Shown here: in pieces, positions 5,945 through 14,074 of the stretch
How positions within the stretch are numbered: the first letter of the stretch is position 1
How the letters are laid out: each line of letters begins with the position of its first letter
Assembly (NCBI GenBank): GCA_964583985.1
Contig: CAZOYD010000067.1
Coordinates: 1-17,564 of the forward strand
From: an uncultured archaeon
GTDB lineage: Archaea; Asgardarchaeota; Lokiarchaeia; Sigyniarchaeales; SOKP01
Direction of reading: 5' to 3'
DNA: 17,564 nucleotides
Notes under the pieces: model-generated
What the model was told of the DNA's origin: nothing
Seen by the model: the letters and a program-made list of their open reading frames with translations, nothing else
Database searches by the model: none
Program-made: the position numbers and the translations under genes

Positions 5945-6180
5945 GATTAGTCGACTGAATTAATGTGTCTCCCATTTATATTATAGTATTAAATTGTTGA
6001 TATTTTTACTTATACCAAGTATTATAGTTTGTTCTATAGAAAGTAAAGCTATATCTAATAAATCATTGACCACCATATTCTATATATTGTATGGGTTTCT
6101 ATATAGATCCTATAAATTCTTTAGAATTATCCCTCAAAAAAGGTAACTGCTTCAAAATACAAAGGGATTATTCAATCTTA

Positions 6181-7150: not shown

Positions 7151-7469
7151 TTTACTGCCCTTAATTTTAAATTTTTTTTTTGTAAATTGTTAATTAGAGG
7201 TATTACCATTAAAATAAAAGATATTTCGACATACTGTCAATATGAATATTGATAATATAGAAAATATATATCTGAAGATTCTCTGAAAAATAACCAAAAA
7301 GGGGGGGTATAATCAGGAGATATTATTAAGAAAGAGATTAATCAGATACATTTAAACTATTACTATATAGATAATAAATTCATATATATTTTATATATAT
7401 CATATATATAATATTTTTATTATAGTATTCATTAGTACATATATAGAAATATAAACTATAAAAAAGGTT
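7151..7469. promoter_or_regulatory. Divergent promoter region between pstS and the AbrB-PhoU regulator
   Basis: A 319-bp very AT-rich non-coding gap between divergent starts. It contains several TATATA boxes, a CTATATAG palindrome and a 7-2-7 inverted repeat. Exact TATA/BRE positions cannot be assigned. Confidence 0.65.
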
Positions 7470-8480
7470 ATGATGTCATTTAATATAGAAACTAGGAAAG
7501 TTCAGCAAACTGGAGGCTCAAGTTTCATCATATCTCTTCCTAAAGAATGGATAATAAAACATGAAGTAAAAAAAAATGATACTTTAGGAATTTTAGCACA
7601 ACCAGATGGAAGTCTACTTATTACTCCTTACATTGATTCGCAAGAACACGTGAAAGAAAAAAAATTTAATGTGGAAGATAATATAAATCCAGACTTTCTT
7701 TTTCGGTTACTTATCGGAGCATATATAATGGGATATTCAATCATTATTATTCAGGCTACTGGGAATAAATTTGAGCGAATTATCAGAGAAACGATTGAAG
7801 CTTTTATTAAAATCACGATTGGTCCAGAAATTATCGAAGAAACAACTAATAGGATCTTCATAAAAGACTTACTTAGCCCAAAGGAAATGCCTTTTGAAAA
7901 AATAATACGGCGAATGTACATTCTCGCTCGAGAGATGCACGAGGATGCTGTAAAATCTTTTGAATTAGGAGATTTATCCTTAGCTAAAAAAGTGGTGGAA
8001 CGGGATGATGAATTAGATAGGTTGAATTGGTTAGTTGAGCGACAATCCCATATTGTCTTGAGAGACATCATTTTATGTCAAAAAATGAATATTACCCTTG
8101 AAGATGCAAGTAATTTCCAATTAATCAGTAAATCTCTTGAACGAATTGGAGATCATGCTGTAAAGATAGCTGAGAATGTGTTAAAAATAGATTACAATAA
8201 TTTAAGCCCCGAGTTATTTGAACTAATCAAAGAAGCTAGTAAGATGTCATTAGTCTTGCTAAATATAAGCTTAGATGCTTGGCTTCAAAAAAGTCTTGAT
8301 CTTGCAAATGCTAATATCGAATCAATTGATAGTCTCATTGAATTGTGCCAAAAAATTCGTGTAAATCCTGCTAATGCATCTGAATTCGCAGTTCAAATTG
8401 GTTATATTATAGAAAGTATTAGGAGAACTGGAGAATACTCTGCGGATATATCAGAGATCATCATAAATAATTTAATCTAA
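7470..8480 (+). CDS. Archaeal phosphate uptake regulator (N-terminal AbrB-like DNA-binding domain + PhoU domains)
   Basis: ETRKVQQTGGSSFIISLPKEW is the AbrB-like N-terminus of this archaeal family. PhoU motifs are ERDDELDRL, SLERIGDHAVKIAE and ESIRRTGEYSADISE. The gene is divergent from pstS. Confidence 0.92.
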   Translation: MMSFNIETRKVQQTGGSSFIISLPKEWIIKHEVKKNDTLGILAQPDGSLLITPYIDSQEHVKEKKFNVEDNINPDFLFRLLIGAYIMGYSIIIIQATGNKFERIIRETIEAFIKITIGPEIIEETTNRIFIKDLLSPKEMPFEKIIRRMYILAREMHEDAVKSFELGDLSLAKKVVERDDELDRLNWLVERQSHIVLRDIILCQKMNITLEDASNFQLISKSLERIGDHAVKIAENVLKIDYNNLSPELFELIKEASKMSLVLLNISLDAWLQKSLDLANANIESIDSLIELCQKIRVNPANASEFAVQIGYIIESIRRTGEYSADISEIIINNLI

Positions 8481-8482
8481 CG

Positions 8483-8782
8483 TTAAGTATTAGTAATTTT
8501 TGGATCATAATTATTCTTCACGCTAATAAGGGTAGTGGTAACGTCTAACCATTTTTGGAGGTCCTTATCTGTTCTGCAATAAGTTATAATTTTCTCTAAA
8601 TCATTCAATTTACTAAAAACGCATTCAAGCAAGAGATCCCAGCCACCATATGTTGGAGTTGAATATGTTATCCTCCATTCTTCACTTGATTCATTCTTAT
8701 TGAATTCTTTGAGTTTACGAATTATATCCCATTGAGTTCCTATGATTTTTAGCCTAATAAGGATATATCCACGGTAATAAAT
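8483..8782 (-). CDS. Stand-alone Lrp/AsnC ligand-binding (RAM) domain protein, 99 aa, probable ATT start; absent from the ORF track
   Basis: Manual translation: (M)YYRGYILIRLKIIGTQWDIIRKLKEFNKNESSEEWRITYSTPTYGGWDLLLECVFSKLNDLEKIITYCRTDKDLQKWLDVTTTLISVKNNYDPKITNT*. The GYILI, YGGWDLL, DLEKII and TTTLI segments match the RAM-domain pattern. The ORF fills an otherwise empty 300-bp gap. Confidence 0.8.
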   Translation of the reverse strand: MYYRGYILIRLKIIGTQWDIIRKLKEFNKNESSEEWRITYSTPTYGGWDLLLECVFSKLNDLEKIITYCRTDKDLQKWLDVTTTLISVKNNYDPKITNT

Positions 8783-8942
8783 TCTTTTAACACCGAATTA
8801 TAATCTGTTTTTTCTACATTTACTATAGATAGTTAATACTTTTTTAATAAGAAGTTTGATGTTAGACTGACAATAATTTTTAGTTATCCTTGATAGTTAT
8901 TGCCTTCGATAGTTTTTTAAACAAAAATAGTCTAAATACTAT

Positions 8943-9625: not shown

Positions 9626-12600
9626 TCACCAGTATAATTCTTTTAACGATATATAATACTCATTCAATGATTTAATAGGAAACTTTTTTTCTCGAGTAGT
9701 TTCAATCGCCTTAAATAGAGCTTTGGCAAGTTCTAATGTCGTGACAACAGGTACGTTGAAATCTACTGCCATCCTCCTTATCTTATATTCGTCCTCCATT
9801 ATTTGTTGAAATTTTTTCTCATTTGTAGCGGGGACTGGGATGTTAATTACCATGTCAATGTGGCCTTCTTGTAAGCACTGCATGATATTAGGTTCCATTC
9901 CATATTCGTGTACCTTATATAATTTCACGGCATCAATTCCAAGAGTTTTTAAAGCTAAGGCAGTATCTTCAGTAGCAAATATTGTATATCCTAGAGCTTT
10001 CACCTTTTTGGCTAAAGGAATTACTTTTTTCTTCAATTCTTCACCACCTACTGAGATAAGAATGTTACCACCATCAAAAGGAATATTTTGTTCGGTAGAT
10101 TCTATAGCTTTTATCAAAGCTTCAGGAAAATCTTCTCCTAAAGCAGCACATTCACCTGTACTACTCATTTCTACTGAGAGTATCGGGTCTGCTTTTTCTA
10201 ACCGCATAAATGAAAACATCGGTGCTTTAACAGCTACATAATTTCCATAGGGTGCGTTTAAAATTCTTTGAGGAATATTTTTTCCCATAAATACTTCTGC
10301 AGCAAGTCGCATTAGATTTATCCCTCGGGTCTTTGATACATAAGGCATGCTTCTGCTAGACCTTAAATTGCATTCAATTACGGAAACTTCATCATCTTTT
10401 ACTAAATATTGAACATTGAATGGTCCATGAATTTTAAGAGCAATTGCAATTTCTCTTGTGTATTTTTCTATGACTTTTATCGTATTATCTGAAATGGTAT
10501 AATAACCAATTGACATTGTTGCATCTCCAGAATGAACTCCAGCATTCTCTATGTGTTCTACAATTGCTCCAATCAATACATTTTCACCATCACATACCCC
10601 ATCACATTCAACCTCACGGGCATCAGTAAAGAATTTAGTAATTACAACAGGGTAATCTTTTGAAACTGCAGCTGCTAAATCTAATGTATCTTGGAGTGTT
10701 TTTTCATCATAAGAAACACGCATCGCAGCTCCACTCAAAACGTAAGAGGGTCTCACAAGTACTGGGTAACCGACATCTTGGGCAAATATTAAAGCCTCTT
10801 CAGGAGTGGTAAGCATTTTCCATTGGGGTTGTTGTATCTCCAACTGATCCAACATATTACTAAATTTGGCGCGATCTTCTGCCATGTCTATTCGCGTGCC
10901 ATGAGTTCCTAAAATATTGATTCCCGTTTTACGAAAAACTTCTGAATATTTTGAAAATTTATTCGCAAGGTTATTAGCAATTTGACCTCCTACAGAAACT
11001 ACTATTCCATCAGCTTGTTCTAATTCACAAATATCAAGTACTCTTTCTCCTGATAATTCTTCGAAGTATAGTTTATCGCTTATATCATAATCTGTCGATA
11101 CTGTTTCTGGATTGTAATTAATCATTATCGCTTGATCTACTCCTAATTTTTTCAGCCCTAACAAGCAATTCACAGAACCCCAATCAAATTCTACAGAAGC
11201 TCCAATTCGATAAGTTCCTGAGCCTAACACAATAATTTTTCTTAGATTCTTCCTATTTTCTGATTTGTAATCAATATCATGCTCACATGCACTATAAGTT
11301 AGATATAAATAATTCGTAATAGCAGGCCACTCAGCAGCTAAGGTATCTATTCTTTTTGTATAAGGTATGATCCCTAAGTTTTTTCTCATTTGACGTATAA
11401 AAATCGTATCGACACCCATAATTTCAGCTATTTGACTATCTGAAAAACCAAATCTTTTTGCTCTCTTTAGCCAATATTTTTTCTCTTTGTCATCTGATTC
11501 TAGCAATTCAATATCTTGAATTTGTCTTTCTAAGTCTATGATATTTTTTATTTTATATAGGAACCATTTATCTACTCTTGATAAACGATATATCTCATCA
11601 ATTGAGATACCTCTTTTTAATGCTTCCACTATTCGAAAAATTCTTTGATCTGTTGGATTATGCAGAGCATACTTTAATTCATTAATATCCGTGATTGGAC
11701 CTAACTTATTAACAACTAATCCTTTCATTCCAATGTCCAGCATCCTTATAGCCTTCTGAAGAACTTCTTCAAATGTCCTTCCAATGGCCATAACCTCTCC
11801 GATACTTTTCATAGATGAGGTTATTCTTCTGTCAACTTTATCAAATTTTGCAAGATCCCAACGAGGAATTTTGAGAACTAAATAATCCAAAGCGGGTTCA
11901 AAGCATGCCGTTGTTATCCCCGTGATTTTATTTTTTAATTCTGGAAGGGAATATCCAATTGCTAATTTTGCTGCTATATAAGCAAGTGGATATCCAGTCG
12001 CTTTTGACGCAAGAGCAGAGGATCTTGAAAGCCGAGCATTCACTTCAATTACTCTGAATTCTTTTGAATAAGGATGTAATGCATATTGGATATTACATTC
12101 ACCGATGATTCCAAGGCCTCTTATAATACGAATGGAAGCGGATCGTAGCATGTGATATTCTTCATTAGTGAGCGTTTGAGACGGTGCAACTACAATACTC
12201 TCTCCAGTATGGACGCCAACTGGATCAAAATTTTCCATATTACAATTTATGAAGCAATTATCGACAGAATCTCTTACAACTTCATATTCGATTTCTTTCC
12301 ATCCATACACAGATTCTTCAATTAAGATTTGATGAATTCTTGATTGAGCAAGTCCTTTTTTTGCCATTCGCTCAAAATCTTCAATATTATCTATAATTCC
12401 AGAACCTCTACCTCCTAGAGTATAGGCTACTCGAAGCATTAAAGGAAAGCCGAAATTTTCAGCTACCATTAGTGCCTTTTTATATGAAGTTACCGCTTGG
12501 CTACGACACACTTTAGCATTTGCTTTATTCATGGCCTTGACAAACAAATCTCGATCTTCTGTGAGCTCTATTGCTTCAATGGGGGTACCAAGAACCCTTA

Positions 12601-12937
12601 TTTTATATTTTTCTAAAATTGCAAGTTCTTTTAATTCTACTCCAACATTTAATGCAGTCTGACCTCCGAATGCCAGTAAAATACCATCTGGTTTTTCTTT
12701 TTTTATAACTTCCTCAACATATTTTACATTTATCGGTAATAAATAAACTTCATCTGATAATTCAGGATCAGTTTGAATTGTTGCTATGTTTGGATTGATT
12801 AAAATCGTTTGTATGCCCTCTTCTTTTAATGCTTTCAAAACTTGACTTCCAGAATAATCAAATTCTCCCGCTTGTCCAATCCGTATTCCCCCTGAACCTA
12901 ATACGAGTGCTTTTTTAATAGTTGTATCTAAAGGCAT
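9626..12937 (-). CDS. carB: Carbamoyl-phosphate synthase large subunit
   Basis: IGQAGEFDYSGSQ, WKEIEYEVVRD, IEVNARLSRSSALASKATGYPLA, NYNPETVSTDYD, RPSYVLSG and HIENAGVHSGDA. It has two ATP-grasp halves plus a C-terminal MGS-like domain (1103 aa). Confidence 0.98.
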   Translation of the reverse strand: MPLDTTIKKALVLGSGGIRIGQAGEFDYSGSQVLKALKEEGIQTILINPNIATIQTDPELSDEVYLLPINVKYVEEVIKKEKPDGILLAFGGQTALNVGVELKELAILEKYKIRVLGTPIEAIELTEDRDLFVKAMNKANAKVCRSQAVTSYKKALMVAENFGFPLMLRVAYTLGGRGSGIIDNIEDFERMAKKGLAQSRIHQILIEESVYGWKEIEYEVVRDSVDNCFINCNMENFDPVGVHTGESIVVAPSQTLTNEEYHMLRSASIRIIRGLGIIGECNIQYALHPYSKEFRVIEVNARLSRSSALASKATGYPLAYIAAKLAIGYSLPELKNKITGITTACFEPALDYLVLKIPRWDLAKFDKVDRRITSSMKSIGEVMAIGRTFEEVLQKAIRMLDIGMKGLVVNKLGPITDINELKYALHNPTDQRIFRIVEALKRGISIDEIYRLSRVDKWFLYKIKNIIDLERQIQDIELLESDDKEKKYWLKRAKRFGFSDSQIAEIMGVDTIFIRQMRKNLGIIPYTKRIDTLAAEWPAITNYLYLTYSACEHDIDYKSENRKNLRKIIVLGSGTYRIGASVEFDWGSVNCLLGLKKLGVDQAIMINYNPETVSTDYDISDKLYFEELSGERVLDICELEQADGIVVSVGGQIANNLANKFSKYSEVFRKTGINILGTHGTRIDMAEDRAKFSNMLDQLEIQQPQWKMLTTPEEALIFAQDVGYPVLVRPSYVLSGAAMRVSYDEKTLQDTLDLAAAVSKDYPVVITKFFTDAREVECDGVCDGENVLIGAIVEHIENAGVHSGDATMSIGYYTISDNTIKVIEKYTREIAIALKIHGPFNVQYLVKDDEVSVIECNLRSSRSMPYVSKTRGINLMRLAAEVFMGKNIPQRILNAPYGNYVAVKAPMFSFMRLEKADPILSVEMSSTGECAALGEDFPEALIKAIESTEQNIPFDGGNILISVGGEELKKKVIPLAKKVKALGYTIFATEDTALALKTLGIDAVKLYKVHEYGMEPNIMQCLQEGHIDMVINIPVPATNEKKFQQIMEDEYKIRRMAVDFNVPVVTTLELAKALFKAIETTREKKFPIKSLNEYYISLKELYW

Positions 12938-12940
12938 ATT

Positions 12941-14074
12941 TTACAGACTCATCATTTCAATAAATTTATCAAATAAATAAAGAGAATCAAGTGGACCGGG
13001 TGATGCTTCAGGATGGAATTGTACTGCAATAATTTGTTTCTGATTATGCATTAAACCTTCATTTGAATTATCATCTAAATTTTTTAAAAATTCTTTAAAA
13101 CCACCTTGTTCGAAATCTTTAACGCAAAAGCCGTGGTTTTGAGATGTTATAAAACATCTTTGAGTATATGGGTTTATAACCGTTTTATTTCCGCCTCGAT
13201 GACCATATTTTAATTTATATGAAGACCCACCTGCAGCTAAACCGATAATTTGATTTCCTAAACAAATTCCCATTGTCGGTATGTTGTTTTTTATCAAGTT
13301 ACGAGCAACTTCTATGGCGCTTAAATATATTGCCGGGTCTCCAGGACCATTAGATATGAAGACTCCATTAGGGTTTAATGATATGATTTGTTCATAAGTA
13401 TAATCATGAGGAATGACAATTACTTCGATATCTCGACTTATAAAATTTCTCAATATGTTCAATTTCACGCCCATATCTAATACGACAACTCTACCCTTTA
13501 TATGAACGGGTTTATAATGAATGATTTCCTTCGTTGAAACTTCAGTGGATAAATTCCTTAAGTTTGGATCTTTTACCAGTTTTACTTCTTCTCGTAATTC
13601 TTCAATGTTAGGGGTTTCACCAGGATGCAAAACCGCAAGTAGTCCTAATTTTACTCCTTCCTCTCTTAGAATTTTAGTTATAGCACGAGTATCGATCCAT
13701 TCTATTCCGGGGATATCTTCTTCTAAAAGAAATTCATTTAGTGTTTTTACACTCTCATAATGACTTGGATTCTTGCAACATTCATTAACAACAAATCCAC
13801 TCACTTTTATTGAATCGGATTCAAAATACTTGAGAATGCCCGATTTATCTTTTTCCCAAGCAGGGACTCCATAATTTCCTACTAATGGGTGTGTCATGAC
13901 GACTATTTGACCGTTGTAGGAAGGATCAGTCAAAGTCTCATTGTAACCAGCACCAGTAATTGTTGTAAATACAATTTCTCCATGTACTTTTTTCGTAGCT
14001 CCAAATCCGATCCCTTCAAAATAGCGACCATCACTAAACATCAAAATGGCGGGTCTTTCTTTCTTGTATAACAT
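12941..14074 (-). CDS. carA: Carbamoyl-phosphate synthase small (glutaminase) subunit
   Basis: LTDPSY, PLVGNYGVP, GIEWIDTRAITK, SNGPGDP, catalytic Cys in GICLG, TSQNHGF and His-Glu in QFHPE. Confidence 0.98.
   Translation of the reverse strand: MLYKKERPAILMFSDGRYFEGIGFGATKKVHGEIVFTTITGAGYNETLTDPSYNGQIVVMTHPLVGNYGVPAWEKDKSGILKYFESDSIKVSGFVVNECCKNPSHYESVKTLNEFLLEEDIPGIEWIDTRAITKILREEGVKLGLLAVLHPGETPNIEELREEVKLVKDPNLRNLSTEVSTKEIIHYKPVHIKGRVVVLDMGVKLNILRNFISRDIEVIVIPHDYTYEQIISLNPNGVFISNGPGDPAIYLSAIEVARNLIKNNIPTMGICLGNQIIGLAAGGSSYKLKYGHRGGNKTVINPYTQRCFITSQNHGFCVKDFEQGGFKEFLKNLDDNSNEGLMHNQKQIIAVQFHPEASPGPLDSLYLFDKFIEMMSL

Follow-up and report, generated by a model that had tools for sequence, protein, structure and literature searches.

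Can a gene that begins at none of the canonical start codons (ATG, GTG, and TTG) be recognized by comparing sequences, and what would such a gene encode? The question is raised by a minus-strand reading frame at positions 8483-8782 of a 17,564-nucleotide (nt) stretch of contig CAZOYD010000067.1 (assembly GCA_964583985.1), which comes from an uncultured Lokiarchaeial archaeon and which we call the window. A preliminary description, made from the sequence of the window, had read the frame as a hidden gene for a stand-alone Lrp/AsnC amino acid-sensing (RAM) domain that initiates at ATT. We put the probability that the frame is a real gene translated from this ATT at roughly 0.85, and the comparisons below argue with the same confidence for an intact, expressed gene, predicted to encode a single divergent RAM module of about 98 amino acids without a DNA-binding domain.

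The frame and its start codon across the family

Re-reading the frame gave its architecture exactly as first described. The sense part of the RAM-like gene runs from 8782 to 8486 and is followed by a TAA stop (8485-8483), another in-frame TAA lies six codons 5' of the ATT, and the five sense codons in between (TTC GGT GTT AAA AGA) include no canonical start. The first such codon is the TTG at codon 51, giving the 49-amino-acid open reading frame (ORF) that had been listed, and a start there would leave the fold without strand 1, helix 1, and strand 2. Ahead of the ATT the minus strand reads GGTG(8794-8791)-TTAAAAGA-ATT(8782-8780); the 3' end of this genome's 16S rRNA (contig C19) is ...GGAUCACCUCCU, the CACC of which is complementary to GGTG (GGUG in RNA). 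The 8-nt spacing is identical to that of the Ras-family GTPase gene at 1574-2110, which starts as GGTG-ATTTTTAA-TTG. Further upstream, an A/T-rich block (Table 1) that may be the gene's own promoter is partially conserved in the closest orthologues (40 nt upstream compared in L001-L004). Two independent Joint Genome Institute metagenome assemblies of the same population (L146 and L147) also read ATT and are identical over 131 bases of the start region, so the ATT is not an assembly error.

The family is widespread within its class. A six-frame search found orthologues at 60-85% identity in all 23 sampled genomes of the genus (E down to 1e-59), most of which also hold one or two paralogues, and a family profile detects the gene in most of the GTDB family (125 of 133 genomes) and also in several neighbouring ones of the class, with weak matches in other Asgard classes (E 1e-6 to 1e-8). 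Mean column identity in a 30-member alignment is 63%. Against the three closest orthologues, the ratio of nonsynonymous to synonymous substitution rates (dN/dS) is 0.14-0.22 in the first part (codons 2-50) and 0.08-0.11 in the second (codons 51-93), and purifying selection on codons 2-50 implies that the half of the frame upstream of any canonical start is translated. Public gene calls on near-identical contigs are empty over this stretch, and the protein collection holds neither a form of the window protein of 54 or more amino acids nor the 49-amino-acid form from the TTG. Public entries for relatives are truncated (starting at internal leucine codons, with LIRLK or LKIIG) or extended (MKLKDSGVKL..., and one form of 129 amino acids), and their N-terminal extensions are unconserved and broken by stops in sister genomes. 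The claims that the gene is real and that annotation had missed it are both borne out by these results.

The codon aligned to 8780-8782, read directly 5' of the [YF][YF]RGY motif, was tabulated over 112 distinct family loci. It is ATT in 67, ATC in 18, ATG in 17, and another codon in 10, the last mostly from more distant genera with an ATG or GTG further upstream. In 32 of the ATT/ATC loci the preceding in-frame stop lies only one or two codons 5' of the start codon (immediately before it in the AAA TAG ATT TAC TAT of L009, L011, L012, and L017), so that no other start is possible there, and in 64 there is no canonical codon as far back as the previous stop. ATA is found at none of the 85 ATT/ATC start positions, against 25% of internal isoleucine codons and 31 of the 106 isoleucine codons (29%) in the next conserved isoleucine column; valine and leucine never occur at the position, where ATG is the sole alternative. 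The orthologues linked to carB, which encodes the large subunit of carbamoyl-phosphate synthase, form a clade of 53 leaves with 45 ATT, 7 ATC, and a single ATG, despite protein distances of up to 1.8 substitutions per site and codons 2-6 that are free at synonymous sites. An AUU or AUC start has thus been kept by selection in 85 of the 112 family loci and in 52 of the 53 members of this clade. The ATT falls exactly at the domain boundary, the first strand of an AlphaFold2 (AF2) model spanning residues 3-11, and the ATG of relatives annotated as MYYRGY... sits at the same boundary.

The upstream GGTG, which we take as the core of a Shine-Dalgarno (SD) sequence, is the sole invariant upstream block in an alignment of eight orthologues. 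It precedes 83 of the 85 ATT/ATC start codons, with spacers of 6 nt (19 loci), 7 nt (11), 8 nt (52), and 9 nt (1), versus only 2 of the 17 ATG codons, and the lone ATG orthologue of the carB-linked clade (L013) has GGTT in its place. Codon and SD sequence therefore appear to covary across the family, which is suggestive. Initiation at AUU, as the preliminary description had proposed, is supported by the start codons of the 112 loci, the upstream stops, and the GGTG taken together.

Several points nevertheless weigh against an ATT start. On the tree the start class must have changed 10 times or more, yet these changes supply just two well-supported independent contrasts for the covariation (eight on all branches), so a test corrected for relatedness is powerless. 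A canonical codon lies in frame upstream in 21 of the ATT/ATC loci (for example, a GTG 11 codons up in L006 and L007, or a GTG inside the SD sequence in L024-L029), and the start is ambiguous there. The assignment itself comes from comparative sequence alone. Finally, aIF1 of Sulfolobus solfataricus rejects AUU in vitro (PMC4705826), so that archaeal initiation at AUU needs either a permissive aIF1 or compensation by the SD sequence.

If the ATT is the start, the GGUG 8 nt upstream would position the 30S subunit at the AUU (8780-8782) and initiator tRNA would read this near-cognate codon, so that the first residue would be methionine. What this Lokiarchaeial family has conserved is AUU or AUC together with a strong SD sequence; where the same codon became AUG, the exact GGTG has mostly disappeared, and this loss hints that codon and SD sequence jointly set a moderate rate of initiation. 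RNAalifold on eight orthologues found no conserved RNA structure around the SD sequence and start (consensus -0.42 kcal/mol, 0 covarying pairs).

The protein and the carA-carB locus

The expected RAM-domain match was obtained at the level of profiles, and failed with Pfam alone. A family profile searched against the PDB ranks 2cvi and 2e1a, both stand-alone RAM proteins, first (E 0.003), and aligned by hhalign with 12 RAM domains of Lrp/AsnC proteins from the same genome it gives E 2e-5 at a probability of 77%. Only 43 cluster representatives among 1.84 billion proteins match the profile at E<=0.001, and among those representatives are bridging proteins of 79-86 amino acids (family-profile E 1.8e-10 to 8e-4): P0107, matched at E 1.8e-10, passes PF01037 (AsnC_trans_reg) at 27.7 bits, and P0118, P0125, P0126, and P0128 likewise pass the cut-off of that Pfam family. 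The AF2 model (pLDDT 87.8) has the order beta-alpha-beta-beta-alpha-beta (strands 3-11, 36-43, 49-56, and 79-87; helices 17-31 and 59-71), and its best matches in VIA-align are 1ri7 (Z 9.9), 2djw (9.9), 2zbc (9.6), 8q90, 2ia0, and 2cg4 (9.1). The segments YYRGY, W18, W36, YGGWD, and TTT are invariant or nearly so in the family. D49 in the YGGWDL of strand 3, conserved in at least 90% of members, aligns with the aspartate of YGEYDL in 2cvi, and the invariant T82-T84 of the last strand align with its T-S-T; the strand-3 aspartate contacts ligand in Lrp proteins (PMC3584215), and D49 and T82-T84 may do so in the window protein.

Other results count against a RAM identity. The window protein scores only 12.5 bits against PF01037 (E 0.14, residues 44-67 only), below the gathering cut-off of 25 bits, and although this Pfam model matches 24 of 30 family members, the best of them (E 0.0024) is weaker than a cut-off-level match. 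Other ferredoxin-like folds come within one Z unit (eEF1B at 9.5, designed proteins at 9.8), which means that the fold alone is not RAM-specific, and the PII-like SbtB scores near RAM in Foldseek. NCBIfam gave no match for the single window protein, and a Pfam match to BROMI_C was rejected as spurious. Tied to Lrp/AsnC by profiles, bridging sequences, and fold, the assignment as a divergent stand-alone RAM (ligand-binding) domain is supported.

None of 81 relatives of near length (83-129 amino acids) carries a helix-turn-helix (HTH), and no HTH fusion was found among longer proteins, where only a double-RAM form occurs, or among the 1.84 billion representatives. With upstream in-frame stops in addition, the earlier view of a stand-alone protein without an HTH holds, and homologues with a long N-terminal HTH, which would have pointed to a truncated pseudogene, did not appear. 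The double form, P0087 (198 amino acids, from an ENA metagenome), is a natural tandem of two family modules that starts MRYYKGY and has its second module from about residue 104; this arrangement would fit a protein that functions as a dimer.

The most informative context of the gene is carA-carB, upstream on the same strand, and not the phosphate regulator downstream, whose stop lies 2 nt from the end of the gene as had been noted (Table 1). An intact family copy with carB nearby was encountered at 64 loci, and at each of them carB shares the strand of that copy and precedes it by 46-1333 nt; all of these copies are at least 60% identical to the window protein. Outside family f1 the class was sampled with 26 genomes: carB is present in each of the 15 that have the RAM family, and the RAM family is missing from each of the 6 that have no carB, a co-occurrence with a one-sided hypergeometric probability of about 0.002 when calculated by hand and uncorrected for relatedness. 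In the window itself 843 nt and an opposite-strand ORF separate the two genes, making co-transcription with carAB unlikely there. Elsewhere the genes adjoin directly (46-290 nt, with 46-111 nt in loci such as L080 and L100) or enclose one variable opposite-strand membrane ORF.

Table 1. Coordinates of the features discussed (window positions unless a contig is named)
Feature	Position	Strand	Remark
RAM-like coding sequence	8483..8782	-	99 sense codons plus TAA stop (8483-8485); start codon ATT at 8780-8782
In-frame TAA	8798..8800	-	bounds the RAM-like frame upstream
TTG, codon 51	8630..8632	-	first ATG/GTG/TTG in the frame
Shine-Dalgarno core GGTG	8791..8794	-	8 nt before ATT
A/T-rich block AAAAAGTATTAA	8820..8860	-	putative own promoter, about 45-55 nt upstream of ATT
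AbrB/SpoVT-PhoU regulator	7470..8480	+	convergent; Pfam domains; conserved downstream neighbour within the genus only
Predicted membrane ORF, 200 amino acids	8943..9545	+	between carB and the RAM-like gene
carB (carbamoyl-phosphate synthase large subunit)	9626..12937	-	conserved upstream neighbour, same strand
carA (carbamoyl-phosphate synthase small subunit)	12941..14074	-	CPSase_sm_chain and GATase domains
Examples of long frames without a canonical start	C85:10057-10449(+), C5:51165-51845(-), C76:1968-3182(+), C73:5871-6671(-)		

The membrane ORFs in this interval differ between loci (200 amino acids in the window, 336 at L055:1303-2313(-), and 172 at L067:1758-2276(-)) or are lacking; that of the window has a tblastn match in L001 only, is called as 190 amino acids in L146, and has no counterpart in other loci. 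The interval appears to be a hotspot for the insertion of small membrane genes. The closed Asgard chromosome CP070831.1 (L102, about 945-1060 and 1032-1751) has, upstream of an intact RAM gene, a remnant of 23 codons from the 5' end of such a gene, its GGTG-N8-ATC included; the remnant continues into carB-like sequence (VIECNLR...), which is then interrupted by stops, and it looks like a rearrangement scar in the same interval. Two further loci (L051 and L072; DATKTW010000020.1 and DATKTW010000157.1) are titled 'Candidatus Nanopelagicaceae bacterium' and yet hold the Asgard-specific RAM gene with carB/PhoU synteny; the NCBI label looks wrong, since GTDB places the assembly in the window's genus.

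On the phosphate side, the Ras-family GTPase gene mentioned above (Pfam Ras, E 8e-44) adjoins a complete pst operon (PhoU, PstB, fused PstCA, and PstS). An exact ACTATATAGAT lies at 7362-7372, some 100 nt ahead of the gene for the AbrB-PhoU regulator, and TCTATATAGAT lies at 6098-6108 between pstS and pstCA. A Pho-box-like motif was sought near the RAM-like gene, and the exact copy belongs upstream of the PhoU regulator instead; the total number of copies, with two mismatches allowed, is at chance (12 versus 12.2).

For function, we tentatively favour, largely by analogy, a metabolite sensor attached to the carAB locus, its gene acting there as a third member alongside carA and carB. The protein would form dimers and higher oligomers, as known stand-alone RAM proteins do, and bind an amino acid or related metabolite at the dimer interfaces; it would signal either to full-length Lrp regulators (the genome carries 12 or more genes with a RAM domain) or straight to carbamoyl-phosphate synthase. 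We hold it rather unlikely that the protein is no Lrp partner at all and instead a regulatory or accessory subunit of carbamoyl-phosphate synthase, comparable to the small ACT-domain subunits that act on acetolactate synthase, or else a generic ferredoxin-like protein with a different ligand. The tight and ancient same-strand linkage to carB would suit such a subunit, as would a degree of conservation that is unusual for a small sensor and fits a conserved partner, the two insertions relative to classical RAM proteins of 75 amino acids, and the close scores of PII-like, eEF1B-like, and ACT folds; yet every sequence-level link that we found leads to Lrp/AsnC RAM domains and none to ACT or PII, the ligand-contact aspartate (PMC3584215) and the C-terminal threonines aligned with 2cvi are retained, and paralogues of the family stand in unrelated contexts. 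One of these, on C30, adjoins genes for a Glu/Gln-tRNA synthetase and HAD hydrolases, which offers no functional lead. Searches of the available literature for a link between RAM domains and carbamoyl-phosphate synthase found nothing relevant.

Probable initiation at AUU and AUC in the genome

Is the AUU start peculiar to the RAM-like gene? A raw count of the codons that follow GGTG in the genome (3.80 Mb, 31.7% GC) was abandoned because it is swamped by GGTG inside coding sequence, and was replaced by a test at the 5' ends of frames, which scanned the initial 15 codons of frames 80 or more codons long and kept codons that follow GGTG by 6-8 nt and have no canonical start close by. Among the SD-led codons retained, 15 are ATT (3.75 expected) and 7 are ATC (1.4 expected), and near-cognate codons make up 32 of the 62 non-canonical cases versus a background of 16% (binomial p 1.8e-10); under the same filter the canonical codons number 41 ATG, 15 TTG, and 3 GTG. 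The cases are long frames with ATT, ATC, ATA, ACG, or CTG placed 6-8 nt after GGTG, and the examples in Table 1, with identities judged from N-terminal sequence only, include a uS11-like protein (ATT), a P-loop GTPase (ATT) in which every canonical start falls after the G1 motif, a thiolase-like protein (ACG), and an aldolase-like protein (CTG). In starting at AUU the RAM-like gene follows a habit of the whole genome, which uses SD-led AUU and AUC elsewhere too, and shows no special property of its own. Two reviews recognize only AUG, GUG, and UUG for initiation in archaea (PMC7531240, PMC4705826), and searches of the available literature on non-AUG starts in Asgard or Lokiarchaeial archaea found no relevant paper.

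The sole SUI1/aIF1 gene of the genome (C19:34320-34535(-); locus L145:1450-1800(-)) has no ATG, GTG, or TTG in the first 37 codons after an upstream TGA, and its fourth codon, just before a cysteine-rich N-terminus, is ATT. This raises the possibility that the AUU start serves control, translation of the RAM-like gene tracking a stringency of start-codon selection that is set by an aIF1 itself started at AUU, much as with infC/IF3 in bacteria and eIF1 in eukaryotes. Such a role, which would refine rather than contradict the explanation given above, seems to us quite improbable. It would account for the persistence of ATT or ATC in 52 of the 53 carB-linked orthologues despite saturated synonymous sites nearby, when one T-to-G change gives ATG, and it fits both the early ATT of the aIF1 gene and the findings that S. 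solfataricus aIF1 discriminates against AUU and that IF3 autoregulates through its AUU start (PMC4705826). The start region, however, has no conserved RNA structure, ATG has replaced ATT in several surviving lineages of the family, and there is no obvious reason for a RAM sensor to follow the fidelity of initiation. A broader version of the same idea, and one that we would not expect to hold, makes Lokiarchaeial AUU and AUC starts after a strong SD sequence a selected class of genes that includes both the carAB-linked RAM sensor and aIF1; were it so, the RAM family would probably be the cleanest comparative marker of the class, its codon being held deeply and its swaps to AUG coming mostly with loss of the SD sequence, and we give this part no better odds.

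A start other than the ATT, whether at the internal TTG (49 amino acids), at another upstream codon, or at the GTG within GGTG followed by a frameshift, has very little left in its favour. Some orthologues do have canonical codons in frame upstream, including a TTG abutting the ATT in L005 as well as the GTG at -11 in L006 and L007 and that inside the SD sequence in L024-L029, and public gene callers have chosen such codons; the extensions that these calls produce are nevertheless unconserved and interrupted by stops in sister genomes, and 32 loci have a stop at codon -2 or -3. An internal start conflicts with the purifying selection on codons 2-50, which make up half of the fold. The frameshift variant was rejected, the GTG of GGTG standing in all three frames relative to the start codon (spacers of 6, 7, or 8 nt), with no conserved slippery site in the spacer and, in many loci with a 6-nt spacer, an in-frame TAA immediately after it (GGTGTAAGAA-ATT).

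Decay of a full-length Lrp/AsnC regulator into a pseudogene without its HTH and start, or else an assembly error at the ATT, might be suspected from the lack of a canonical start in this genome and the neglect by annotation pipelines, and can be practically dismissed given identical architecture throughout a GTDB family and beyond, independent assemblies with the same ATT, no HTH-bearing relative among longer proteins or the 1.84 billion representatives, 160 nt of upstream sequence that run into the divergent gene without HTH homology, and dN/dS of 0.08-0.22, well under 1 and with no sign of relaxed selection.

Significance and comparison with known systems

Translation from the ATT as a gene of the carAB locus thus remains the reading that we carry forward, and what is new beyond the preliminary description is the conservation of AUU/AUC across the family together with the upstream stops, the covariation of ATG with the SD sequence, the link to carAB, and the genome-wide habit of such starts. 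Pipelines that accept only ATG, GTG, and TTG skip or truncate the RAM-like gene, and a conserved member of the carAB locus is thereby lost from Asgard catalogues. The upstream stops, the ATG substitutes, and the SD covariation make unusually clean comparative evidence for regular AUU and AUC starts in an archaeon, in contrast to the reviews that give only AUG, GUG, and UUG and to the rejection of AUU by Sulfolobus aIF1 in vitro. The locus also suggests that, in Lokiarchaeia, carbamoyl-phosphate synthesis is connected with a small-molecule sensor domain.

Among known proteins, the closest comparison is with the stand-alone RAM proteins (demi-FFRPs, lacking the DNA-binding part of the feast/famine regulatory proteins, FFRPs), represented by DM1 of P. 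horikoshii (2e1a, 2cvi), STS042 of S. tokodaii (2zbc), and TTHA0845 of T. thermophilus (2djw). Like them, the window protein is a single beta-alpha-beta-beta-alpha-beta module without an HTH that retains the aspartate of G-x-x-D in strand 3 and the C-terminal threonines, and they are its best profile matches (E 0.003) and among its top structural matches (Z 9.6-9.9, 16-22% identity). DM1 binds amino acids, interconverts between dimeric and octameric states, and assembles in vitro with the full-length regulator FL11 into a hetero-octamer, although the physiological role of stand-alone RAM proteins is still unclear (PMC2995911). The window family differs from these classical RAM proteins in length (94-99 amino acids, compared with 75-83), with insertions of about 8 residues after helix 1 and about 4 before the last strand, and in falling below the PF01037 cut-off, forming a tight clade limited to Lokiarchaeia, being linked to carAB, and starting at AUU or AUC. 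With the full-length Lrp/AsnC regulators the family shares a homologous C-terminal effector domain, and at least 12 open frames of the genome pass the PF01037 cut-off and are candidate partners. Unlike these regulators it has no N-terminal HTH and no fused relative was found, and in the window an HTH could not be accommodated, given the in-frame stop 5' of the ATT and the divergent gene.

For the start codon, the nearest parallel is bacterial infC, which encodes IF3, along with other genes that start at AUU: in each a conserved AUU or AUC is kept although one base change would give AUG, and initiation at such codons depends on a fidelity factor, IF3 in bacteria and aIF1 in archaea (PMC4705826). 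Here the product is a RAM-like domain and not a fidelity factor, aIF1 being encoded elsewhere (C19:34320-34535), so that no autoregulatory loop runs through the RAM-like gene. The host, moreover, is an archaeon, in which AUU and AUC starts are tied to a strong SD sequence and are common throughout the genome.

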